64,000 bases of DNA, taken from Chiloscyllium plagiosum. Lineage: Eukaryota. The stretch is taken from positions 9,158,037 to 9,222,036 of the forward strand of contig NC_057719.1 in the NCBI RefSeq assembly GCF_004010195.1, in the 5' to 3' direction. This document shows positions 6,195-62,980 of the stretch, piece by piece (positions within the stretch are counted from its first letter, which is position 1; each line of letters starts with the position of its first letter). Below the pieces are notes generated by a model. The model did not search any database. It saw only the letters and a list, made by a program, of their open reading frames with translations, and was not told the origin of the DNA. The position numbers were made by a program, and so were the translations under genes.

Positions 6195-6640
6195 GTGGCA
6201 GCCTCAGTAGTTAGGACTGCTGCCTCACAGCGTCAAGAACCAGGGTTCTATTCCACCCTTGAGTGACTGTCTGTGTGGAGTTTGCCTGTTTTCCCTGTGT
6301 CTACATGGGTTTCCTCCACAGTTCGAGAGTGTGTAAGTTAGGTGGATTGGTCATCATGAAGGGCTCCTGCCTGAAACATAAATTTTCCTGTTCCTCGGAT
6401 GCTACCTGACCTGCTGCACCATTTCCTCACCTTTTCCAGCACCATTCTCATCTTGACTCTAATCTCCAGCATCTGCAGTCCTCACTTTCGCCATGCTAAA
6501 TTGCCCCATAGTGTCCAGAGATGTGCAGGCTAGGTGAATTAACCATGTGAAATACAGACCTACAGGGTTGGGATAGAGAGTTGGTATGACTCACGGGCCG
6601 AATGGCCTGCTTCCACACTATACAGATTCCATGAATCTTG
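6195..6640 (+). mobile_element. HE1-related SINE with a nested PLE terminal fragment (about 6355-6491)
   Basis: SINE breaks at ggattggtcat and resumes at gccatgctaaattgccc. Confidence 0.75.
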
Positions 6641-7887: not shown

Positions 7888-8002
7888 GGCAAGTCAAAAA
7901 GTGTGGCGCTGGAAAAGCTTATGCCTGAAACATTGACTCTCCTGCAATCCTGATGGAGGGCTTAAGCCCAAAACGTCGATTCTCCTGCTCCTCGGACGCT
8001 GC
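7888..8002. mobile_element. Rearranged PLE terminal fragment
   Basis: aatc-CTGATGg-A-GGGC-TTAA-GCCC-aAAAC-GTC-gatt; core mutated. Confidence 0.65.
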
Positions 8003-12675: not shown

Positions 12676-13202
12676 CAATCAACAAACCAACTCATTTGGG
12701 GTGGGATTGTGTCACTGTGTGGTAACTCAGTTCACAAGTCCTGACTAGTGCTGTGGTCATGTGAGTTTAAATCTTATCCTGAGGGATTTTAAATGTAACA
12801 AGACGCTAGAGTTATTACTAGTCATCATTAAAACATGACTGCTTTCCCTCAATTATCTCCCAATTTCCCCCCCACCCCCACTTCCTTAACTGTTAACTGT
12901 TCAGATCATGTGGTAATACAATTCTATTGACCTATTCCAGTGCCTTAACCAAGACCAAGTTCCTCTGAAGTATAGAGAGGGAATGAAGACTGAATATGGG
13001 CCGGCAACGAACGCCACCAATAATCTCCTCACACCTGCAAATCTTCAGGCAAATCCAGAGTAAGGTAACGGTTAGCAGTCAGGATCAGTAACCTGGTCAT
13101 TTCCTCTTTGCCAATCCAGGGGACTTTGAGATTTACTCTGGAATACTTTGGTATCGCTGCTGTTCAGTTTAGTTGCAACTGACCATGAATCAAATGTGAG
13201 AT

Positions 13203-13946
13203 GATGAGGGCAGAGCGGTAGATGTGACCTATATGGACTTCAGTAAGGCGTTCGACAAGGTTCCCCATGGGAGACTGGTGAGCAAGGTTAGACCTCATGG
13301 AACAAAGGGAGAACTAGCCATTTGGATAAAGAACTGGCTCAAAGGTAGAAGACAGAGGGTGGTGGTGGAGGGTTGTTTTTCAGACTGGAAGCCTGTGACC
13401 AGTGGAGTGCCACAAGTACCGGTGCTAGGTCCTCTACTTTTTGTGATTTACATAAATGATTTGGATGCGAGCATTAGAGATACAGTTAGTAAGTTTGCAG
13501 ATGACACCAAATTGGAGGTGTAGTGGACAGCGAAGAGGGTTACCTCAGATTACAACAGGATCTGGATCAGATGGGCCAATGAGCTGAGAAGTGGCAAATG
13601 GAGTTTAATTCAGATATATGCGAGATGCTGCATTTTGAGAAAGCAAATCTTAGCAGGACTTATACACTTAATGGTAAGGTCCTAGGGAGTGTTGCTGAAC
13701 AAAGTGACCTTGGAATGCAGGTTCATAGTTCCTTTAAAGTGGAGTCGCAGGTAGATAGGATAGTGAAGAATGTGTTTGGTATGCTTTCATTTATTGGTCA
13801 GAGTATTAAGTACAGGAGTTCGGAGGTCATGTTGCGGCTGTACAGGACACTGATTAGGCCACTGTTGGAATATTGCGTGCAATTCTGGTCTCCCTCCTAT
13901 CGGAAAGATGTTGTGAAACTTGAAAGGGTTCAGAAAAGATTTACAA
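13203..13946 (+). mobile_element. CR1 RT fragment
   Basis: [54 protein letters not shown]; stops and frameshifts. Confidence 0.95.
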
Positions 13947-13949
13947 ATA

Positions 13950-14225
13950 TACATTCTGTACACATACGAGTCATGCTGTGTGTCAAAAAGTTGTCCCTTA
14001 TGTCTTTTTTTAAATCTCTCTCCTCTCACCTCAAAAACATGCCCCCAGTCTTGAAATCCTCGATGCGCAGGAAAAGGCACCTACTATTAATCCTATCCAT
14101 GTCCCTCATGATTTTATAAACCTCTGTAAGGCCACCTTTCAACCTCCTACACTTCAGTGAAACAAATCCCTGCCTGTGCAGCATTTCCTTAAAATTCAAA
14201 CCTTCCATATCCAGGAACATCCTGT
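13950..14225 (-). mobile_element. CR1 3' fragment, inverted relative to 13203-13946
   Basis: RRLKGGLTEVYKIMRDMDR on the minus strand. Confidence 0.85.
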
Positions 14226-14483: not shown

Positions 14484-14698
14484 GAGAGTCGAGAGTGGGG
14501 TGCTGGAAAAGCGCAGCAGGCCAGAGAGCATCCGAGGAGCAGGAGAATCGATGTTTTGGGCATAAGCCCTTCATCAGGAATGACTGGTGAAGGCCTTAGG
14601 CCTGAAATGTCGACTCTGCTGCTCCTCGGATGCTGCCTGACGTGCTGTGCTTTTCCAGCACCACACTCTCGACTCCGATCCCGAGTCTTCACTTTCTA
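14484..14698. mobile_element. Palindromic PLE-derived element with two facing hammerhead-like cores
   Basis: Arms gagtcgagagtg.ggtgctggaaaagc..gcatccgaggagcag and the reverse complement; ccttcatcagg...ggtgaaggccttaggcctgaaatgtc in the centre. Confidence 0.8.
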
Positions 14699-14779
14699 CT
14701 AATAAAAAAATTAGTAGTTTAAAAAAAAAATCACCTTCACTGAACTGAAAGCCAAAGACTCATTTACCTCGACAAAGTC

Positions 14780-18689: not shown

Positions 18690-18985
18690 CGGTGTGGTGG
18701 CACAGTGGTTAGCACTGTTGCCTCACAGTACGAGGATCCCATGTTCAATTCCAGCCTTGGGTGACTGACTGTGTGGAGTTTGCACATTCTCCCTGTGTCC
18801 GCGTGGGTTTCCTCCAGATGCTCCGGTTTCCTCCCACAGTCCAAAGATGTGTAGGTTAGGTGAATTGGTCATGCTAAATTGCCTGTAGAGTTAGGGGGAG
18901 TGGGTCTGGGTGGGTTACTCTTCGGAGGGTCTGTGTGGACTAGTTGGGCTGAAGGGCCTGTTTCCACACTGTAGGGAAGCTAATC
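18690..18985 (+). mobile_element. HE1 V-SINE
   Basis: A/B boxes, V-domain and tail. Confidence 0.9.
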
Positions 18986-19106
18986 CAATACCCTCATGAT
19001 TGCTTCAATTGAACCTACCTCCTCCACATTTCCAGGGACCTCTCAGAACCCAGGGTTCACGAATCTCAATAGTGCTGCTTCGTCAACTGACACCAAATGC
19101 TCAAAA

Positions 19107-19300
19107 TTCTGGATTAGTGGTGCTGGAAGAGCACAGCAGTTCATGCAGCATCCAAGGAGCAGTGAAATCGACGTTTCGGGCAAAAGCCCTTCATCAGGAA
19201 TCGTCGATTTCGCTGCTCCTTGGATGCTGCTTGAATTGCTGTGCTCTTCCAGCACCACTAATCCAGAATCTGGTTTCCAGCATCTGCAGTCATTGTTTTT
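19107..19300. mobile_element. Palindromic PLE-derived element with intact hammerhead core and 15-bp TSD
   Basis: accaaatgctcaaaa at 19092-19106 and 19301-19315. Minus strand 19197-19170: CTGATGA-A-GGGC-TTTT-GCCC-GAAAC-GTC. Confidence 0.88.
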
Positions 19301-20639
19301 ACCAAATGCTCAAAAGCCAGGCTTGAACCCACAATTTTCAGTCTGAGAGGCAAGAATGCCGTTGCTGAGCCTAGGCTGTTACTTATCACTGAGATTACCA
19401 TTTGTCAAGTGTGAACGAATTCAGAGTTGCATTTTATCTGCAAGTTAGATCACCTCCCTCCAGGGACTGAGCAGATTGCACCCAGTCCACAATGGGGTGT
19501 ACAGTGCAGGACTGTAGGTCGGAATTGGTGTGACAGGAGAAGCAGGCATTTGTTGTGTTGCTTCCTCATGAATCCATTGTACATTGTGAACTTTGTTGGA
19601 AAATTGCGGATGGTTCCATATTCTTAGTATTCTTTTTTTAATAAGCATTTACTCAGACTTTCCAAATAGCAGAAGTCATGCAGCACCTTCTACAGAAGGT
19701 GACTGTGTGTGCAACGTGGGTTGTAAACACTGTACAATGTGTAATGTGGGCAGAAGAAACACTTGCACAACATCCAAATTAACAGTCACAATTACTCAGT
19801 TAATAGGGGTGATTGCAGGGAGTGTAGGTTGAAGATGGGTGGGGAACTACACTCTCAATAAATGTACAGAAAATAGTGGGTCCGGTAGAAGTAATGTCGC
19901 AAACATGCATGACATTATATTAACGGGAGGCACTTGCATTTAAATAGCACCTTTCACCCCCATGGGAAGTCCCAGAACAATAAGTCATTTTTAAACTGGA
20001 GTCACAATTGCAGCTCAGCAAACACACAGCCCCTGCAACTGCAATACCCCACAAACAGGGATGTGATAGTGATCAGACTGTCTTGGTCATGGGAGTGCCT
20101 TGGGGGGGCCAGCAATCAGAGCAAATCAGCAATCGACATTTCACAGCATTGGTCTCTTTGGACAATTGGCTTGGGAAAAGTTGACAAGATTTTAAATTTC
20201 TGAGCAAGCAAAATCAACGATACAAGTCTCAGCAAAGAGTTTCAGCCATTTCCCTGTAAGCTTCGGTCGGAAGAAAATTGAATGCGATGCAAAATCATTT
20301 GCTGATTTACTTTTGTCTTGTTTTTCTATTCACTCGTGGGATGTGAGTGCCTCTGGCTGGGCCAGTGTTTACTGCCCATGCCCTTGAGGAGATGGTGATG
20401 AGCTGACGTTTTGAAACGCTGCAGTCCATATGCTGGCTTGTTTTAAAAAAAAGCATTTTGTGCTGTTAATGGGGACTAAATTCTGTCACGTTAAGTAAGA
20501 GACAAATATTGACTTGGACAGTAAGCACAGCTTCCTTTGAAACAGTTCTGTGTGTTGAAACGGGGCTGTTAGGGTTTTAGTTTAATGTCTCGTTTTAATG
20601 TCAGCACCTCGAACAATGCTGCACTCTCTCGGTACTACT

Positions 20640-26309: not shown

Positions 26310-27582
26310 AATATATGAGACATGGTTAGTAAGTTTGTGGATGACACCAAAATTGGTGGGATATTGGACAGTGAAGAAGGTTATCTAAGATTACAAAGAG
26401 ATCTTGATCAATTGGGTCAATGGGCTGAGGAGTGACCGATGGAGTTTAATTTGGGCAAATGTGAGGTGTTGCATTTTGGTAAAACTAACAAGGACAGGAC
26501 TTATTCAATGAATGGTAAGATGCTGGATAGTGCTGTAGAATAGGGAGACTGAATGAAGTGCAAATTACTGCAGATGCTGGAATCTGTTCTGAAAACAACA
26601 AATGCTGGAGGTCACAGTGGGTCAGGCAGCACCCATGGAGAGAGACCAAGCTAGCATTTCGGGCCTGGATGGTCTCCAGCGTGTGATCTCCAGCATTTTT
26701 TGTTTTCAGAGAGACCTATAGGTTCAGGTACATAATTCTTCACAGGGTGGTTGAGAAGGTGTTTAGCAAGCTTGCCTTCATTGCTCAGACCTTTGAGTAT
26801 TGAAGTTGTGATGTCATGTTGAGATTGTACAGGGCATTGGTGAGGTATCTTCTGGAGTATGTGCACAGTTCTTATCTGGTCGACAGGATGGACATTATTA
26901 AGCTGGAGAGGGGTCAGAATAGATTAGCTGGGAATGGGGGGTTGACTGGATAGGCTGGATAGACTGTAACTTTTTTCACTGGTGCATAGGAGGTTGAGGA
27001 GTGACCCTGTAGAGATTTATAAAATTCTGAAGCGATTACATAAGGTGAAAAGCAAAGGTCTTTTTTCTAGGGTGGGGGTGTTCAAAACTAAGGGGCATAT
27101 TTTTTATGGTGAGAGGAGTAAGTTTTAAAAAGGAAATGAGGGGGTAACTTTTTTTACACAGAGAGTGGTTTGTGTGCAAAATAAATTGCCAGAGGAAGTG
27201 GTGGATGCAGGTACAGTTACAACAATTCAAAAGCATTTGGTGAAGTACGTGAACAGGAAAGATTTAGAGGGATATGGGGCAAATGCAGTCAAATGGGACT
27301 AGTTTAGTTTGGCACATGGTTGGCGTGAGATTAGAGTGGTACTGGAAAAGCACAGCAAAGTCAGGCAGCGTCCGAAGAGCAGGAAAATCGATGTTTTGGG
27401 CAGGAGCCCTTCATCAGAAAAGGTCGATTTTCCTGCTCCTAAGATGCTGCCTGACTTGCTGTGCTTTTCCAGTACCACTCTAATTTTGACTTTGATCTCC
27501 AGCATCTGCAGGTCTCACTTTCGCCTACATAGTTGGCATGGACTAGTTGGGTCTGTTTCCATGCTGTAAGACTCTATTACTC
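26310..27582 (+). mobile_element. Decayed CR1 3' kilobase with two PLE-derived insertions
   Basis: KFVDDTK..MEFNL..through to the 3'UTR; inserts at about 26553-26710 and 27326-27527. Confidence 0.85.
27326..27527. mobile_element. Palindromic PLE-derived element
   Basis: Arms gattagagtggtactggaaaagcacagc / gctgtgcttttccagtaccactctaat; acatggttggc and acatagttggc on the flanks. Confidence 0.8.
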
Positions 27583-30220: not shown

Positions 30221-30437
30221 CAAGAGAAAATGCTGGAAAATCTCAGCAGGTCTGGCAGCTGACATTTCGAGTCTAACTGACCCTTTGTCAAAGCTGTCGA
30301 GCTTTGACAAAGGGTCAGTTAGACTCGAAACATCAGCTCTTTTCTCTCCTTACAGATGCTTCCAGACCTGCTGAGATTTTCCAGCATTTTCTCTTTTGGT
30401 TTCAGACTCCAGCATCCGCAGTCATTTGCTTTTATCC
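30221..30437. mobile_element. Palindromic PLE derivative with head-to-head hammerhead-like motifs
   Basis: 39-bp inverted repeat 30257-30295 / 30300-30338; agtg(g)ctggagatca duplicated on the flanks. Confidence 0.82.
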
Positions 30438-30714
30438 AGTGGCTGGAGATCATAGTGGGTCAGGCAGCATCCACGGAGAGAGAGCAAGCTAATGTTTTGA
30501 GTCTAAATTTGGAGATGCCGGTGTTGGACTGGGGTGTACAAAGTTAAAAATCACACACCAGTTTACAGTCCAACAGGTTTAACTGGAAGCACTAGCCTTT
30601 GGAGCGCCACTCCTTCATCATCCTTAATCAATCACCTGGACTATAACCTGGTATTGTGTGATCTTTAGTTTTGAGTTGAGGTGACTTGTTATCAGACCTA
30701 CGATGAAGAGTCAT

Positions 30715-31049: not shown

Positions 31050-31459
31050 TCATCTGGACTCAAAACATTAGCTTGCTTACTCTCCATGCAATGTGCCTGA
31101 CCCGCTGTGATCACCAGCACTTTTTTGTTTTCCTTACAATCTCAAATGGTCTTTCTTCAGCAATATAACCAACTGTGTGATATTTGCCCTGATTGCCGTT
31201 TCTGTTACCCTGATGGTTTATCTGCCATCTCTGTCATACAGTGGCAGAGAGGTAGGGTTACATAAGATCCACGTCTTTCTATTTTACCTTGACGATATAT
31301 TGAAAGGGAGAGATGGGCATTGTTTCAAAAAAGAAGACAAACAAGGAGTTGTCCACAGCTTTAGGAAAGCAAGCAAAGCTTATGGGTTGCATATCAGATG
31401 CTTCTTCTCTTTGCGGGCACTGACAAAGACTCATCACTTGTGTATGTTTGCCCAGAGTC

Positions 31460-31671
31460 GAGAATGTGTTGCTGGAAAAGCACAGCGGGTCAGGCAGCAT
31501 CCGAGGACCAGGAGAATTGACATTTCGGGCTGGACACCTTCATCAGAAAAGGGGCTGACGCGGCCAGAAACGTTGATTCTCCTGCTCCTCAGATGCTGCC
31601 TGACACGCTGTGCTTTTCCAGCACCACACTCTCGACTCTGATCTCTAGCATATGCAGTACTCACTTTCTTC
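31460..31671. mobile_element. Palindromic PLE-derived element with 17-bp TSD
   Basis: tatgtttgcccagagtc at 31443-31459 and 31672-31688. Confidence 0.85.
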
Positions 31672-32070
31672 TATGTTTGCCCAGAGTCAGGGTTTTTAAC
31701 TAGACCAATTGTCTTGGGTTCAGGGGAGCTCAGCATGGCAACAAGCCTTGACTTTATACAACAAATTCCACTGGAGGTAAATGAAAATGACTGGACCATG
31801 CGGTTGGTGCAGGGAGGAGATGGTATAGCATCAATTAGCTCATAATCCATGAGCCCTCTCTGGCTTGCATGTTCAAATCCCATCATTGAAGCTGGTGGAG
31901 TTTTAATCCATTTCCTAAATCTGTATAAAGTGGAGTTCTGAAAACCAGAATCAAAACATTAACTGTGTTTCTTTCTCCAAAGATGCTGCCAGATCCACTG
32001 AGTTTCGTCAGCATTCTCTCTGTTTGTTTCAGCTTTATAGCATCTGCAGTATTTTATGTTTTTTTAAAAA

Positions 32071-40699: not shown

Positions 40700-41193
40700 G
40701 AGGTTATTACTCTCAGATGTAGAATCCAGAACGAAGAGGCAAAGTCATAGCATCATAGAGATGTACAGCACAGAAACAGACCCTTCGGTCCAACCCGTCC
40801 ATGCCGACCAGATATCCCAACCCAATCTAGTCCCACCTGCCAACACCCGGCCCATATCCCTCCAAACCCAAAGTCTCAGGATAATGTGGCTGAGATGGCA
40901 GAGCAATTTCTTCCCCCAGATGGCTGTTTAGAACTCTCTACCAGGCTGTTCTTCCAACAAGGTAAGGAAGAGGAATCAGCTCTACTTTTTAAAAAATCCC
41001 CTCTTGTTCAGTCACAACAAATATTTGTTATTTTGTTTTTCAGTTAAAATGAGATAGAACGAAAAAAATCATGCAACTCCATGTTAGACTATATTCTTTT
41101 TTACTTTTTATTTATTAATTTTGCAGGATATGGGCATCCTTGGTTGGCCCTCTCTAATTGCCCTTGAGAAGGTGGTGGTGAGCTGCCTTCTTG

Positions 41194-41823
41194 GAGAGAC
41201 TGAGGACTGCAGATGCTGGAGCTCAGAGTCGATAAAGTGTGGCGCTGGAAAAGCACAGCGGGTCAGTCAGGCAGCATCCGAGGAGCAGGAGAGTCGACAT
41301 TTCAGGCAGAACCCTTCATCAGAAGCGGGGAGGGGGAAGAGAGATAAACAGAGGGTGGGGTGCTAAACAAGGCCACCCGCAAACTGGAGGAAGAACATCA
41401 CAGCTTCTGCCTTGGGAGTCTATAGCCACAAAGCCTCAACATTGAATTCACCAGTTTCCATATCTCCCCTCCTCCCACCCATCCCAGATCCAACCCGGCA
41501 CTGCCCCCTTGACCTGACCTAACTTTCCCACCTATCTGCTCCACCTTCCCACCCGACCTCTCACCATCACCTCTTATGTGCATCCACCTATCACCATCCC
41601 ACCCACCTTCCCCACCGACCTATCACCATCACCTCCGACCTGCATCCACCTATCACCATCCCACCCACCTTTCCCCCAGCCACACAGCTCCCCCCACCAT
41701 TTATTTCTCAGCCTCCTTCCCCCTCCCCATTTATGACGAAGGCATTATGCCTCAAACATTGACTCTCCTGCTCCTCGGATGCTGCCTGATATGCTGTGCT
41801 TTTTCCAGCGCCACACTTTATCA
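41194..41823 (+). mobile_element. 5'-truncated Penelope-like element: inverted terminal repeat, ORF end, 3' UTR and terminal repeat
   Basis: About 41366-41460 reads KATRKLEEEHHSFCLGSL*PQSLNIEFTSF (PLE ORF C-terminus); 13-bp TSD agctgccttcttg at 41181-41193 and 41824-41836. Confidence 0.85.
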
Positions 41824-42274
41824 AGCTGCCTTCTTGAACTGCTGCAGTCCACCTGCTGAGGGTTGACCCTCAGTGCCATTAGGGAGGGAATTCCAGGATT
41901 CTGACTCAGCCACAGTGAAGGAACGGGTCAGGATGCTGAGTGAATTGGAAGGGAACTTAACAGTGGTGGGGTTCCCTCGTATCCACTGCCGTTGTCCTTC
42001 GAGATGGAGGTGGTCATGGGTTTGGAAGGTGCTGTCTGAGGATCTCTGGTGAATGTGTTACTGCACAAGTCGGATCCCAGTCTGACATAATAGACTATAT
42101 TTGGTTCCTTTTGGTTTCAATGAGCTGCTCTTTCACAGAAACTTAAGCACGCAATGCTGTAAATTTGTTTCTAACAATAAAACAGAAATTTACAAAGCAA
42201 AAGGAATGAAGAAAAAATCAATTTAAACCCAAATTATTTACATATAACACAATTTTAAAGATTTTGAAACATGT

Positions 42275-42597: not shown

Positions 42598-42745
42598 AAG
42601 CGAAAGGACTGAGGATGCTGTAAATCAGAAACAAAACTAGATGTTGCTGGAAAAGCTCAACAGGTCTGGCAGCATCTGTGCAGAGAAATTAAAGTTAACG
42701 TTTCAGGTCCAGTACCTAAGCTTTTCCAGCAACTTCTGTTTTGGA
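42598..42745. mobile_element. Family B palindromic PLE derivative
   Basis: gttgctggaaaagct..gttaacgtttcaggtccagt..agcttttccagcaac. Confidence 0.7.
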
Positions 42746-47290: not shown

Positions 47291-47957
47291 AGAAATCGGA
47301 ACATAGCCAGATCAGTCATTACCTTAGTAAATGGCAGAGCAGGCTTGAGGCTTGATGATGTGCAGACCTCTTAAACATCAATAAAATGCTCTGCAAGAGT
47401 TGAACAATAAACATCAAGTGGGATTCCCAATGGATTCCATCTCCTCCTTTTAACATTCTCCCCTCATCCCTTGGCTCATTGTTTGCATTTCCACTGGTGA
47501 CATGTAGAGACTCAGCCTTTTCTATCTCATTCAGTTTTCCTCACTGTCCTGCTGAATAACTGGAATGAGCACAGCGTGTGTCGCACACCTTATCAGCTTA
47601 TCAACCTCTTTCCTCACAAGACCGTCCCCACACAATACAGGCAAAATTGCTTTTCCTTCCGTTCGTCACAGGAGTTGTGAGATCGTGGTTATGATATTTG
47701 CACATACGGAGGATTAGTTTATTTTCCTCCAATGCTATTCTTCCTCCTGTATCTCTAAGCCTCACCAGCCACACAACAAAAACAGCTTGTGTTTAAACAG
47801 AGATTCCAGAGATGAAAGCTTGTCTATGAGCAGAGATTGAGCAGTTTAGGCCAATAATCACTAGAAGATTGAGAGGAGATCTAATTGTGGGACATAAGAT
47901 GCTAAAGGGGATTGACAAAATATACAGAGTGGATCTTTTCTCATGTGAGACAATCAA

Positions 47958-48275
47958 GGGTGGCACGGTGGCACAGTGGTTAGCACTGCTGCCTCACAGC
48001 GCCAGTGACCCGGGTTCAATTCCCGCCTCAGGCGACTGACTGTGTGGAGTTTGCACGTTCTCCTCGTGTCTGTGTGGGTTTCCTCTGGGTGCTCCAGTTT
48101 CCTCCCACAGTCCAAAGATGTGCAGATTAGGTGAATTGGCTGTGCTAAATTGCCCTTAGTGTAAGGTGAAGGGGTAAATGTACGGGAATGGGTTTGGGTG
48201 GGTTGCTCTTCGGAGGGTCGGTGTGGACTTGCTTGGCCGAAGGGCCTGTTTCCACACTGTAGGTAATCTAATCTA
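47958..48275 (+). mobile_element. Young full-length HE1 V-SINE inside an old CR1
   Basis: gggtggcacggtggcacagtggttagc..cccgggttcaattcccgcc..taatctaatcta. Confidence 0.93.
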
Positions 48276-48410
48276 AAAAGAACACAAGGTCATAGATTTA
48301 AGGTAAGGGCTAGCAGAGATGAGGAGGAATGACCTCTCAATGGGTCATGAATCTGTGCAATTCACTGTCCCAGAGTGTGGTAGATGATGGGACACTGAGT
48401 AGATTTAAGA

Positions 48411-48716
48411 TTATCTACAGTGTGGGAACAGGCCATTCGGCCCAAGAAGTCCACACCGACCCTCGGAAGAGTAACCCACCCACACCCATTTCCCTCTGAA
48501 TGACACACGTAACACTATGGACAATTTAGCATGGCCAATGCACCTAACCTGCACATCTTTAGGTTGTGGGAGGAAACCGGAGCACCCAAAGGAAACCCAC
48601 GCAGACACGGGACGAATGTGCAAACTCCACACAGACAGTCACCTGAGGTGGGATTCAAACCTGGGTCCCTGGCGCTGTGAGGCAGCCGTGCTAACCACTG
48701 AGCCACCGTGCTGCCC
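48411..48716 (-). mobile_element. HE1 V-SINE
   Basis: Full-length match. Confidence 0.92.
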
Positions 48717-49095
48717 ATTTGATTGGATTTATTATTGTCACATGTATCCAGTGTAATGTTTTGCTTTGCGAGTAGAACAGGCAGACAATACCATAGAAAG
48801 TGAATCAGGGTAACAGAACAGAGTGAGGAATACAATGTTATGGCTGCAGAAAATGCACCCAAAGAGGGAGATCAACACTGAATTTAAAATTTGAGAGGTC
48901 CATGTAGAAGTCTGTTAACAAAGGAGAGGAAGCTGTTCTTGAATCTATTGGTATGTGTGTTCTAGCTTTTGGCACCTTCTGTCTGACGGAAGAGTTTGGA
49001 GGAGATTATAACTGGGGTGGGAGGGGTCTTTGATGATGTTGGCTGCTTTCCTGAGGTAGTGGGAAGTGTAGGTGGAGTCAATGGATGGAGGTGGA
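48717..49095 (-). mobile_element. Rex1/Babar LINE 3' end
   Basis: PSIDSTYTSHYLRKAANIIKDPSHPSYNLLQTLPSDRR is a Rex-type ORF C-terminus; tail tgtgacaataataaatc. Confidence 0.8.
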
Positions 49096-49720: not shown

Positions 49721-50120
49721 GGGGTTGGAGGAGATTTCAGACACAGGGAGGGACCATGGGGCTGGAGGAATTTGCAGAGACAGGGAGGGATCATGGGCCT
49801 GGAGGAGATTGCAGAGACAGGGAGGGAACATGGGGCTGGAGGTGATTGCAGAGATAGAAAGGGATCATGGGGTTGGAGGGGGTTGCAGTGACAGGGAGGG
49901 ATCATGGGGTTGGAGGAGATTTCAGACACAGGGAGGGACCATGGGGCTGGAGGAGTTTGCAGAGACAGGGAGGGATCATGGGCCTGGAGGAGATTGCAGA
50001 GACAGGGAGGGATCTTGGGATTGGAGGAGGTTTCAGAGACAGGGAGTGATCATGGGGTTGGAGGAGGTTGCAGAGACAGGGAGGGATCATGGGGTTGGAG
50101 GAGGTTGCAAAGATATGGGA
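49721..50120. repeat. 37-bp minisatellite, about 11 copies, abutting the gap
   Basis: Unit agacagggagggatcatggggttggaggagattgcag; cagggagg at 49744, 49781 and 49818. Confidence 0.95.
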
Positions 50121-51020: not shown

Positions 51021-51235
51021 GAGACAGTGAGGACTGCAGATGCTGGAGGTCAGAATTGAGAGTATATTGCTGGACAAGCACAGCAGGTCAGGCAGCATCC
51101 AAGGAGCAGGAGAATCGATGTTTCAAGCAAAAGCCCTTCAACAGGAATGGGGGCTCTGGCCCGCAACGTCAATTTTTCTGCTCCTTGGATGCTGCCTGAC
51201 CTGCTGTGCTTTTCCAGCAACACACTCTAACTCCA
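51021..51235. mobile_element. Palindromic PLE-derived element
   Basis: gtgaggactgcagatgctgg..gcatccaaggagcaggag..ctgctccttggatgctgcctgacctgctgtgc. Confidence 0.78.
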
Positions 51236-54677: not shown

Positions 54678-55450
54678 GTCATAGAGTCAGACAGATGTAC
54701 AGCATGGAAACAGACCCTTCGGTCCAACTCGTCCATGCCAACCAGATACCCCAACCCAATCTAGTCCCACCTGTCAGGACCTGGCCCATATCCCTCCAAA
54801 CCCTTCCTATTCATATACCCATCCAAATGCCTCTTAAATGTTGCAATTGTACCAGCCTCCATCGCTTCTTCTGGCAGCTCATTCCATGCATGCACCACCC
54901 TCTGTGTGAAAAAGTTACCCCTTGTCTCTTTTATATCTTTCCTCTCTCACCCTAATTCCTGATTATCACCCTAATTCTCTCTCATTCCTGAAAAGGGCTC
55001 ATGCCCGAAACGTCAATTCTCCTGTTCCTTGGATGCTGCCTGACCTGCTATGCTTTTCCAGCAACACATTTTTAGCTCTCTCACCCTAAACCCATGCCAG
55101 CTAGTTCTGGACTCGCCCATCCCAGGGAAAAGACTTTGTCTATTTTTCCTATCCATTCCCCTCATAATTTTGTAAACCTCTATAAGGTCACCCCTCAGCC
55201 TCTGACACTCCTGAGAAAATAGTCCCAGCCTGTTCAGCCTCTCCCCATAGCTCAAATCCTCCAACCCTGGCAACATCCTTGTAAATCTTTTCTGAATCCT
55301 TTCAAGTTTTGCAACACCTTTCCTCGAGGAAGGATACCAGAATTGCATACAAAATTCCAACAGTGGCCTAACCAATGTCCTGCACAGCCGCAACATGACC
55401 TCCCAACTCCTGTACGCAATACTCTGACCAATAAAGGAAAGCATACCGGC
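54678..55450 (-). mobile_element. CR1 3' end with a PLE-terminus insertion (54956-55075)
   Basis: LVRPLLEFCMQFW..RLRGDLIEVYKIMRG; 14-bp TSD ctctctcaccctaa at 54942-54955 and 55076-55089. Confidence 0.9.
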
Positions 55451-56839: not shown

Positions 56840-56901
56840 GCAGTCACCAGGAGTGTGAGTTGATTAAAATACAAGAGCAAGCCAGGTGAAGAGATGGTGA
56901 G

Positions 56902-57116
56902 TCGAGAGTGTGGTGCTGGAAAAGCACAGCAGGTAAGGCAGCATCCAATAAGCAGCAGAATTGGTACTTCAGACACGAATCCTTCATCCTGATGAAGGGC
57001 TTATGCCCGAAACATCGATTGTCCATCTCCTCGGAGGCTGCCTGACCTGCTGTGATTTTCCCACACCACACACTTGACTCTGATCTCCAGCATCTGCAGT
57101 CCTCACTTTCTCCTCC
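56902..57116. mobile_element. Palindromic PLE-derived element
   Basis: atc-CTGATGA-A-GGGC-TTAT-GCCC-GAAAC-ATC-gat; flanks gaagagatggtgag / gaagagctgatgag (12/14). Confidence 0.82.
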
Positions 57117-58072
57117 GAAGAGCTGATGAGGGCAGGTGACCAGGAGCTTTTTGTTTCATTCTCTCACAAGAGGTGGTCATTGCTCACTGAGGGAGCAGTT
57201 ATTGTCTGTCCCTATTTGCCTTTGAGAAGGCGGTAGTGACCCAAGATTGGCTGTTCCAAGAGATTGGCTTTAAGAGCTTCTTGAAGAAGTATGGAAGAGT
57301 TCAGGGAAGGGGAATTTTTGGGGAGAAGTGGGAATCCCAATTCAAGCATCCATAGAACCAGTCGCCAACCAAGAAGGGATCGGACTCAGGGAAGCATAAG
57401 GGACCAGGGTTGACAGAATGCAGACATCCCAGGTGTTGTAGGACAGGGATGACATTACAAAGATGGGGAGGAGGTGACGCCATTTTATCACCAAGTAGGG
57501 ACTTTTATTAACCAAGCAGAGAGCCTGAGCAGGTACCATTGTCCTTGTCCTAAGACTGAAACGGTTGCCTCTGCTTTCTATTTTATAGCCCTTTTGACAC
57601 ACACTCACTGCCAGCTGCTGCAAGGGGAGGGGGGAAGATTGTGAATTTCCTCTGTGTCACAGACAGGGAAGTTTTGCTTGAGCGCTGACCAACAGTGCAA
57701 TCCATCACCATCACTGTAAAACATCTTAAACTTTGTCCATCCCCCCAAGACGTTCTGCTGTACCAGAGGAAAAATAAATAACTGTGGGATGTCAAAACCT
57801 GCCAGAAGCTTTGATGCAATTCAGAACTCCAGGGATGTCAAATGTAATCACACGTTCATCTTTTAATATCTCTCGCTGAATTCTGACTAGGTTCACTGAC
57901 AATGAGAAAGCAAACTTCTCTTTTCCTTCTTCATTACATTGCCTCTCACAATTCCCAGAGGTAAAACTAAAACAACACACTTGGAAATGAATGCACTGTT
58001 CTGGAGACTGGTCTGAAAACAAATCGGACCAGCGTGCATCCTCTATAACTTTTGCTGGTTTTATTTCCTGGG

Positions 58073-58334: not shown

Positions 58335-58656
58335 CAAAGTTCTCAAAGGCACGAAAGAGCTTCCAAAAAACAATTAGAAGCTGCCTCTTCTCTGCCATTT
58401 GGTTTCTTCTGCCACAAGACAAACTCCGAGGGAAACAAGAATAGAATCCTACAGCACGGAGACAGGCCCTTTGGCCCAAACTGGTCCATGCCGACCAAAA
58501 TGTCCATCCATGCTAACTCCATCTCCCCGCACCTGGCCCATATCCTTCTTAAGCACCTTTTTAAAATGTGGTGAGTTTTTGTGCACTGCCTGAAAAGATT
58601 GTGGAGACAGATTCAGTAGTAATTTTCAGATGTGAATAGACATTGTAAAGGGAAGC

Positions 58657-58838
58657 TAGGGTAGATAAGCAGGAGGCTGGAAGAACACAGCAAGCCAGGC
58701 AGCATCAGGAAGGTGGAGAAGTCAACGTTTTCGGGTGTAACCCTTCTTCAGTCCTCCTGACGCTGCCTGGCTTGCTGTGTTCTTCCAGCCTCCTGCTTGT
58801 CTACCTTGGATTCCAGCATCTGCCATTTTTTTTTATCT
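58657..58838. mobile_element. Palindromic PLE-derived element (divergent family)
   Basis: Arms aagcaggaggctggaagaacacagcaagccaggcagc and the reverse complement; minus strand CTGAAGA-A-GGGT-TAC-ACCC-GAAAaC-GTT. Confidence 0.8.
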
Positions 58839-59932
58839 CTGTAAACGAGAGCTGACAGGGCTATGGGAGAAAGAGTGAGAGATTTAGCCTCATTGGGAAC
58901 CCTCCCGTGAGGTGGCATATGCATGATAGGACATATCTCCTGTCATGTATGTGTGTTGAGTTGATGCAGTTTTCCTCTTTAATTCACACTAAAACATCAC
59001 GTTACATCATCCTTTCCATACCCTGAGTGGGCTCCTCACAAGGGGCTCGGGTTTCAGCCTTCCTCAATCATGACACTCGGAAGTCACTACATTAGGAGAT
59101 TTCCACTATCTATGCATCCCATTTCCACCCCTCTCGCCTTTGTGATCATCTAAGGGCAACTAGAGACAGGCAAGAAATGCTGGCCCATCTTTCACGAGCT
59201 ACAATCAGTTTTGAAGAAGGGTCACTGGTATCAAACGTTAATCATGTTTCTTTTCACAATTGCTGACAGACCTGCAGAATTTCTCCAGCAATTTCTGCAT
59301 TTGTTTTAGATCTTCATTCATTCATATTTCATTGTCTTACTTCGATCTTTCATCCAGATCTCTATGCTCTATTTCATAAACCCGTTCAAAGCCAAGCCTT
59401 ACTTGCCTCTCATCACTGTCTGGTCTTCATTTTAATTCTTGCATCGCTGCATTTTCTGCCCCAGTTCTGATCCTTTTCTGTGGATAGAAAATAGATACAC
59501 AGGGCCCTTCCAGTAACGAACCTGGTGCAGTAGTAACAGCAAGGATAATACAGGGTTACCAAAGCAACCACGTCCTTCCCGAGACACATGTCCACTATTC
59601 CTTTCATAGATCTGCTGACAGATGTTCAGGCTTTGTTAGTAGCATTGTTGGGACATAATTTTATTTGTTTCATTTTCGAATAACTCATCACTTACAATAT
59701 CAGTGTGAAAAAGGTGCAAAACTGCTGATTTCACAAATTGTTATGACAACCTTGAGTAGTTAGGAGTGCAGTTTACCTGTGAGAGCTGAAAAGGGAATCT
59801 TTCCTGCTTACATCCCTCAAAGGTTTTTGAAAGCCCTTCACGGCAAATGAGTAATTTTGAAATTTCTGCCAATAGTTGGACAAGTATAGCAGCCACTTTG
59901 TTTACGATGATGCATCACTAATTAGAAACACA

Positions 59933-62302: not shown

Positions 62303-62980
62303 TGGTGCGGCTGCTCAGCAGTCAACACTGTTGCCAGACAGCCCCAGGGACTTGGGCTTGATCCCAGCCTCAGGTGACTGTCTGTGTGGAATTTGCACAT
62401 TCTTCCTGTGCCTGGGTGCTCCTGTTTCCACCCACAGTCCAAAGATATGCAGGTCAGGTGGATTGGCCATGCTAAATTGTCAGCAGTTCTCCAGCTTCCT
62501 CATTTCCCCTCCCCCCACCTTATCTCAGTCCCAACCCCCGGATTCAGCACCGCCCTTTGACCTGCAATCTTCTTCCTGACCTCTCCGCCCCCACCCCCTC
62601 TCCAGCCTATTACCCTCACCCTCACCTCCTTCCACCTATCATATTCCCAGCACCCCTCCCCCAAATTCCCACCCCCTATCCTTTATCTCAGCCCACTTGG
62701 CACACCAGCCTCATTCCTGAAGAAGGGCTTATGCCCGAAACGTCGATTCTCTTGCACCTCGGATGCTGCCTGGCCTGCTGTGTTTTTCCAGCACCACATT
62801 TTTCGACTCTGGTCTCCAGCATTTACAGTCCTCACTTTCTCCTAAATTGTCGGCAGTGTCCTGGGATGTGCAGGGTAGGTCGATTAGCTATTGGAAATGC
62901 AGGCTTATGGGGATAGGGTAATGGGGATGATCTGGGTGGGATGTTCTTTAGAAGTTGTGTAAACCTGATAGGCCAAATGG
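62303..62980 (+). mobile_element. HE1-related SINE split by a PLE insertion
   Basis: Breaks after ggccatgctaaattgtc and resumes at 62842. Confidence 0.8.
62488..62841 (+). mobile_element. PLE 3' end with intact hammerhead core and 16-bp TSD
   Basis: CTGAAGA-A-GGGC-TTAT-GCCC-GAAAC-GTC at 62717-62744; ctaaattgtc(a/g)gcagt at 62472-62487 and 62842-62857. Confidence 0.88.

Follow-up and report, generated by a model that had tools for sequence, protein, structure and literature searches.

The 194-bp fold-back at positions 19107-19300 of the window (the whole 64-kb stretch of DNA that was analysed) is a real feature, and most likely a doubly truncated insertion of a Penelope-like element (PLE), folded back on itself and of an anatomy that has already been described. 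We hold with good confidence that the whole is best explained as a single PLE insertion, dead on arrival and formed by the steps proposed below. The evidence comes from the anatomy of the insert, an empty site in a relative, seven further fold-backs in the window (Table 1) and a link to reverse transcriptase (RT)-GIY-YIG proteins of sharks.

Table 1. Features of the element and of related copies, in window coordinates; signed positions count from C3 of the hammerhead.
Feature	Position	Strand	Remarks
Left copy of the target site duplication (TSD), 15 bp	19092-19106	+	Last base fits the arm of the element too
Tail-less arm	19107-19201	-	PLE terminal repeat, -4 to about +90 relative to hammerhead C3
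Minimal type I hammerhead core	19170-19197	-	C3 (19197) to C17 (19170); from sequence letters
Arm junction	19198-19201	+	From pairwise alignment, junction view
Tailed-arm body	19202-19269	+	Sense copy from C15.2, 4 nt before the predicted scissile bond
One-sided tail, 31 nt, containing CCAGCATCTGCAGTC	19270-19300	+	No left-side partner
Right TSD copy, 15 bp	19301-19315	+	From sequence and the organism C contig
Fold-back	14485-14700		Tail partly deleted; junction differs from that of the element; no clear TSD
Fold-back (copy 27336), another subfamily	27314-27540		14-bp TSD, 2 mismatches; junction spacing near-equal to that of the element
Fold-back (copy 31452)	31443-31688		Exact 17-bp terminal repeat; junction differs from that of the element
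Long fold-back (copy 41193)	41181-41836		13-bp TSD; tail-less arm extends to the end of a PLE ORF
PLE ORF end within the long fold-back	41348-41509		One internal stop
Fold-back	51021-51228		Core kept on the tailed arm; no clear TSD
Fold-back (copy 56899)	56888-57130		Joined at the core start; 14-bp TSD, 2 mismatches
Fold-back, third subfamily	58651-58840		Tailed arm from about +45; no clear TSD
Single-orientation copy	62487-62845	+	ORF end, pyrimidine-rich UTR, hammerhead core and tail; coordinate reference

Anatomy of the insert

The first-pass annotation had described a 194-bp fold-back with a perfect 15-bp TSD, and both parts of this description hold: the insert is bounded by two exact copies of ACCAAATGCTCAAAA (0 mismatches), a sequence that occurs twice on the plus strand and never on the minus strand of the window, and a repeat search recovers two 72-nt arms in inverted orientation, 19106-19177 and 19198-19269, which are 94% complementary and enclose a 20-nt spacer. 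The minus strand is predicted to fold at -148.1 kcal/mol (z = -19.4), and none of 200 shuffles folds equally well. In structure the insert comprises two 5'-truncated copies of one terminal repeat, fused at their 5' ends. The right copy, tail included, spans +24 (C15.2) to +122 relative to C3, with 3 mismatches to the left arm across the 68 positions of its body. At the join, the letters GAA (19198-19200) can be assigned to either copy, closing the left arm or serving as G12-A13-A14 in the right one, a 3-nt microhomology. The arms had been called asymmetric, as they are, with the segment carrying CCAGCATCTGCAGTC on one side only; the core-bearing arm has no tail and the tail-bearing arm no core, such that neither arm contains the other.

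Contigs of the same family define how the left arm relates to longer copies. Past 19201 these contigs switch to the upstream sequence that is seen in longer copies in the window: 540-760 contigs per run go on behind this point, with a weak consensus similar to what those longer copies have upstream, and because they continue upstream the left arm is to be read as a truncated part of a longer element. At the other end, the family match runs 3 bases into the right TSD, and the family contig pieces end at 19303. When 22 family arms from the window were aligned (16 from the eight fold-backs and six from single copies, with about five short or distant family pieces excluded), the two arms of the element proved to be mutual nearest relatives, 95% identical over their shared body, whereas identity to any of the other 20 arms does not exceed 80%; both therefore derive from one subfamily, which is represented in the window by this element only.

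Short, with long inverted arms and, as first annotated, without coding sequence (neither stop-to-stop frame across it, proteins 35 and 36, has a Pfam match), the element has the look of a miniature inverted-repeat transposable element (MITE) or a foldback DNA transposon. MITEs and other DNA transposons with terminal inverted repeats have a fixed short TSD, whereas TSDs in this family range from 10 to 17 bp and are unrelated in sequence from copy to copy. The true termini of the insert, moreover, match as an inverted repeat at only 5 of 25 bases, and copies in single orientation and linked to an ORF exist. The comparison of termini and the variable TSDs refute a MITE, in agreement with the doubt already expressed at first pass, and we give a DNA transposon of either kind a negligible probability.

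Target site and empty site

An empty site in a relative, proposed at first pass as a check, was found in organism C, where a single contig of 422 bp (run X17) joins 18958-19091 directly to 19301-19581, and thus carries one copy of the target and is without 209 bp (the insert plus one repeat). Because this contig has a single target copy, the 15-bp repeat is a true duplication, and the one contig bears out insertion at an endonuclease cut. The insertion is present in organism A, where a contig of run X5 covers 19279-19620 with zero differences, and absent in organism C (one contig). It is probably carried by organism B too: a contig there (run X9, record 23; 19281-19620) begins inside the tail and holds 20 letters of it, which fall under our bridging rule of 31 letters and make the insertion in this organism only probable. 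Four of the 24 listed runs were aligned to 18900-19620, namely these three and the RNA run X22, which has 0 reads on the entire stretch and is hence uninformative about the element.

The flanks differ at 20 of 415 positions from organism C and at 14 of 340 from organism B. Taken with the divergence between the arms (3/68), and given the wide intervals on all of these values, they would be compatible with an insertion that dates between the splits of organisms B and C. On the minus strand, the right flank (19316-19375) resembles the head of a decayed tRNA-derived SINE, and the target may therefore be an older repeat; with the insert excised, the target was matched nowhere else in the window, and ARAGORN returned 0 tRNA genes.

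The hammerhead core

The first-pass annotation had further described the hammerhead core as intact, a claim that stands for its letters and less so for its folding. The conserved letters are all in place on the minus strand (CUGAUGA, an extra A, a helix II of 4 bp written GGGC/UUUU/GCCC, GAAA, a palindromic CG at 15.2-16.2, and U-C), and would put the scissile bond at 19170/19169, but helix I is weak and contains a U-U mismatch, the loop of helix III is absent, and the hammerhead models of Rfam are silent on the core. Across the window Rfam gave no match at its gathering score, and at E <= 10 the ten matches within 18950-19450 were to sub-threshold microRNA hairpin models only; we judged these non-specific and set them aside. 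A 25-nt core pattern with up to 3 mismatches matches the window nine times, against 0.00 expected from 100 shuffles, and a search of metagenome contigs with a degenerate core pattern came back with 0 loci.

The core is of the minimal kind described for metazoan PLEs, with which it shares an extra base between 9 and 10.1, the pair G10.1-C11.1, palindromic 15.2-16.2 and the absence of loop 3 (Cervera and de la Pena, 2014; PMC4209133). Such hammerheads are reported to require a dimer and to cleave weakly (PMC4209133). Pairs of hammerheads on opposite strands, 100-700 bp apart, are regarded by the same authors as likely truncated PLEs (PMC4209133); unlike such pairs, our element keeps a single core, whose cleavage site would be sequestered by the other arm. 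Secondary-structure prediction for the entire element gives C15.2 to C17 a pairing probability of 1.0, and a forced hammerhead fold would cost +18.6 kcal/mol there, as compared with +6.1 in a lone arm, figures that cover only the secondary structure of a single, protein-free RNA. Self-cleavage of this hammerhead is thus predicted to be disfavoured, and with the ORF absent and the ribozyme buried in the stem the element is probably inert. Since the tailed arm still has the 4 nt that precede the scissile bond, the RNA template of this arm was uncleaved, and we rejected 5' truncation at the self-cleavage site.

These properties bear on whether the element could be a monomer of a non-LTR retrozyme, spread by way of self-cleaved circular RNA. 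Retrozymes of this class are likewise short, non-coding and PLE-related with a type I hammerhead (PMC7229834; bioRxiv 10.64898/2026.07.22.740005), they are reported from the one chondrichthyan sampled (bioRxiv 10.64898/2026.07.22.740005), and the size of about 200 bp and the long TSD of the element would suit one. They are described, however, as direct tandem repeats with at least two ribozymes (PMC7229834; bioRxiv 10.64898/2026.07.22.740005), whereas the element is inverted and has one, and a listing of tandem repeats contains no head-to-tail array here. The core, being minimal and the only one present, would need a dimer, its cleavage site is predicted to lie fully paired in the stem, and the uncleaved template of the right arm is at odds with a self-cleaved RNA. 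We therefore regard a retrozyme as very improbable.

Fold-backs and single copies in the window

A comparison of inversion junctions had been proposed at first pass, and within the window it shows eight fold-backs whose junctions vary, some of them clustered. Read by eye as tail-less and tailed positions, the eight pairs are -4/+24 (the element), -4/+25, -6/0, -8/+8, -2/+45, about -370/-25, +8/-9 and +2/-2, a distribution that is clustered and not random. Two geometries recur, one shared by the element and copy 27336 (-4/+24 and -4/+25) and one by copies 31452 and 51021 (-8 or -9/+8), and these paired junctions coincide with short matches of GAA or GGG, which suggests that joining hotspots are created by the ribozyme's own self-complementary letters. 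In all eight fold-backs the tail is confined to exactly one arm. The tail-less arm is the longer one toward the 5' end in six of the eight, a difference that is not significant (p = 0.14). A script search found TSDs of 15, 17, 13, 14 and 14 bp in five of the eight fold-backs, with no clear TSD in the other three, and of 10 and 14 bp in two of seven single copies.

The recurrence of junctions makes it worth considering whether the element is a non-autonomous hairpin that formed once, was transcribed and was then reinserted by PLE proteins with its junction fixed, propagating itself as a unit. Seven of the eight junctions lie within about -10 to +45 of C3, the spacing in copy 27336 is near-equal to that of the element (-4/+25 as compared with -4/+24), the PLE of Anolis carolinensis known as PAc requires only a short RNA region near its hammerhead (PMC11167929), and non-autonomous derivatives of PLEs are known in MRC1 (PMC8557442) and in the retrozymes (bioRxiv 10.64898/2026.07.22.740005). 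Copy 27336, however, is a member of a different subfamily and agrees in its letters with copies in single orientation, for which reason an independent join at GAA is the simpler account of it. Of the seven other fold-backs in the window, one shares the spacing alone and none shares both the junction and the subfamily letters. In the contigs of three runs there are 397 distinct joints, and among the 15 listed, the 14 that lie within the element are each represented by 1-4 contigs per run. It can also be expected that a stem as long as this one, about 70 bp of duplex, would hide from the protein the stretch of RNA to which it must bind, and reverse transcription that began at the customary start sites on a fold-back RNA would have to traverse the stem. 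Among the 24 listed of about 222,000 pieces, organism A included, there is no contig that spans the element, and one record (X17 record 4; 19106-19211) passes the junction by 10 bases before it diverges, and was not scored as a copy with the same junction. A self-propagating hairpin is on this evidence unlikely. We regard as equally unlikely the broader proposal in which the hammerhead region is a strong stop-and-join site that gives rise to a class of hairpins of about 190 bp in sharks, some of which, those of the -4/+24 type included, may be remobilized as fixed units by Neptune-type proteins and would amount to a MITE-like retroelement with a sequestered ribozyme; this junction type does occur in two subfamilies within the 64 kb.

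If the PLE origin is accepted, the inversion itself might still have come about differently, by the snap-back of a single cDNA or by a later second insertion or gene conversion. Snap-back fits two of the eight fold-backs, 51021 and 56899, whose tailed arm exceeds the other in length, and a letter that is in the minority in run X5 and yet is carried by both arms (19164/19211) also speaks for routes of this kind. In the element, however, as in six of the eight fold-backs, core and tail lie on different arms, and one cDNA therefore cannot template both: because neither arm contains the other, two separate primings are required, barring a later rearrangement of the loop. As for a second insertion, one TSD encloses both arms, and an origin of both from the same rare subfamily is not expected. 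We consider these routes quite improbable, and retain two primings within one insertion event.

Several further copies are of interest in their own right. In terms of BLAST ends against one reference, a measure that is possibly biased, 15 of 27 family arms have their 5' ends between -11 and +2 of C3 (14 after correction of 41193L by eye), a cluster that could stem from the start of transcription or from stalling of the RT. A single tail-less copy at 54942-55089 with a 14-bp TSD has extra 5' pieces that repeat target sequence, and it looks like a case of template jumping; at 7912-8002 two partial pieces of the hammerhead region form a direct tandem. The copies at 6351-6492 and 62487-62845 are both inserted in an abundant tRNA-type SINE, which we take to be HE1, just past the same region of it. 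Finally, the distant relatives at 26563-26680, 30319-30478 and 42605-42720, which were excluded from the arm alignment, have the same tail motif and are probably older PLE subfamilies.

Link to RT-GIY-YIG proteins and placement of the family

The long fold-back provides the link to a protein. In a search without a word index, the 54-aa ORF end that it carries returned 18 protein matches, of which ten are predicted proteins of the whale shark; the other eight (P0006, P0009, P0010, P0013, P0015, P0016, P0017 and P0019) are long, of low identity or repetitive, and were dropped. A word-indexed protein search with the same 54 aa matched none of nine candidates, and Pfam had nothing for the ORF end nor for P0001 alone. 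With a whale-shark protein as the query, P0020 (Rhincodon typus) and P0021 (Stegostoma tigrinum) are among 15 matches (78 candidates). P0020 is 52% identical to the ORF piece of the window over 50 aa; its match to the RT family RVT_1 (E = 9e-5, 22.7 bits) falls under the Pfam cut-off of 29.6, and that to GIY-YIG (E = 9e-5, 23.2 bits) stands barely above the cut-off of 22.6. Upstream of the GIY-YIG domain P0020, a protein of a relative and not of the element itself, has a CX4CxxC linker. P0021 and P0007 extend into the translated hammerhead region, and the PDB yielded no relative of P0020 (best E = 0.1). This link to an ORF runs by way of a subfamily that is about 80% identical to the element, not through its own subfamily.

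A CX2-5CxxC linker between RT and endonuclease characterizes two PLE clades, Neptune and Nematis (Craig et al., 2021; PMC8557442), and the motif in the protein of a relative would place the shark family with this Neptune/Nematis type, the two clades being taken together. The element itself carries the marks of an endonuclease-bearing (EN+) PLE insertion: a truncated and an inverted copy, the tail, the hammerhead letters and, by an indirect route, homology to RT and GIY-YIG. Next to such insertions there is often a second copy, inverted and 5'-truncated, and a tail of 30-40 bp is frequently confined to one of the ends (Craig et al., 2021; PMC8557442). With the complex EN+ insertions described there our element shares the 5' truncation, the inverted copy, the one-ended tail and the hammerhead in the terminal repeat, and the related ORF likewise combines an RT, a CX2-5CxxC linker and, at its C terminus, a GIY-YIG domain (PMC8557442). 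It differs from those insertions in that its copies are each shorter than 100 bp, lack an ORF and have junctions clustered at the hammerhead, and in that it has a clean 15-bp TSD in DNA that is not microsatellite, with an empty site known from one contig (PMC8557442). The proposal made at first pass, of an extremely truncated PLE with an inverted 5' copy, is thereby upheld by the protein link, the published anatomy of PLEs and the varied junctions, and we hold with strong confidence that the element is a truncated PLE insertion of the Neptune/Nematis type.

A proposed mechanism for the fold-back

We propose that the element arose in four steps, the last three of which (double priming, cDNA stops and end joining) we hold with moderate confidence. 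First, the element's GIY-YIG endonuclease, the enzyme expected from the family, would nick both target strands 15 bp apart, the distance given by the observed TSD. Second, both nicked ends would act as primers for the RT, with uncleaved RNA of the element as template, such that one cDNA would begin at the tail tip and the other at the tail base, a step to which the anatomy and two in vitro start sites of the anole element PAc point. Third, the cDNAs would halt in or near the hammerhead, at the observed positions of -4 and at most +24 relative to C3. Fourth, the cDNA ends would be joined through the 3-nt GAA, where the microhomology is observed, and repair would then yield the order arm, loop, arm, tail. 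The scheme would resemble twin priming of L1 elements, except that the same stretch would be copied by both primers and thus be duplicated as a hairpin: in L1 twin priming each primer copies a different part of the RNA, whereas both arms of our element copy the same part. What the two have in common is that reverse transcription is primed from either side of the break in the target and an inversion results (Ostertag and Kazazian, 2001, as described in PMC2246262).

The biochemistry of PAc, an element of the Poseidon clade from Anolis carolinensis, offers a close parallel (Frangieh et al., 2024; PMC11167929). In the in vitro work, nicking and extension affect the two strands of the target alike, the RT starts at two sites that flank the tail, the protein is predicted to be a dimer and the main substrate is unprocessed RNA (PMC11167929), with which the uncleaved template of our right arm agrees. 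As in PAc, the hammerhead of our element lies about 90-125 nt upstream of two ends that bracket the tail, the RNA template would be uncleaved and both target strands would be extended (PMC11167929). The two differ in that the Cys linker is absent from PAc and present in the shark family, and in that the PAc ORF begins inside the hammerhead, whereas the same frame in our element stops after 20 codons (PMC11167929). The evidence from PAc thus concerns another clade, and the main text of that study does not treat fold-back copies and is silent on inverted copies and TSDs (PMC11167929). The origin of tandem and inverted PLE copies is stated by Craig and colleagues to be undefined (PMC8557442), and our literature search, which left most subscription papers and Repbase/Dfam outside its reach, returned no paper on the shark family or on twin priming in PLEs.

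Other features of the window

Among 150 stop-to-stop frames in the window four have Pfam matches, all of them to fragments of RT or AP-endonuclease, and no host gene was found among these frames by Pfam. Broken LINE fragments with matches to AP-endonuclease and RT lie at 3-941 and 13200-14116; these we take to be CR1. The window further contains a perfect tandem duplication of 105 bp at 208-417, which may be an artefact of assembly, two SINE copies of about 330 bp at 47951-48725 (inverted, 83% identical and 125 bp apart), and a 37-bp minisatellite of 10.6 copies at 49721-50113 that adjoins a run of N.

Implications

As a single locus the element is of small import, being one among many such remnants, and repeat annotators could mistake it for a MITE or a microRNA hairpin. 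It may serve as a presence/absence marker among organisms A, B (where its presence is probable) and C. Its value lies rather in the clean mechanistic footprint that it offers for the origin of inverted copies in PLEs. Two-ended priming from two RT start sites predicts a tail on one arm, and a race between a leading and a following cDNA on one RNA predicts that the arm with the core is often tail-less; a tail-less arm that reaches further 5', as in six of the eight fold-backs (p = 0.14), would be expected if it were the leader on a shared RNA. The one-armed tail (8/8 in this window) and the often tail-less core arm together provide a test that could be counted in any shark assembly.
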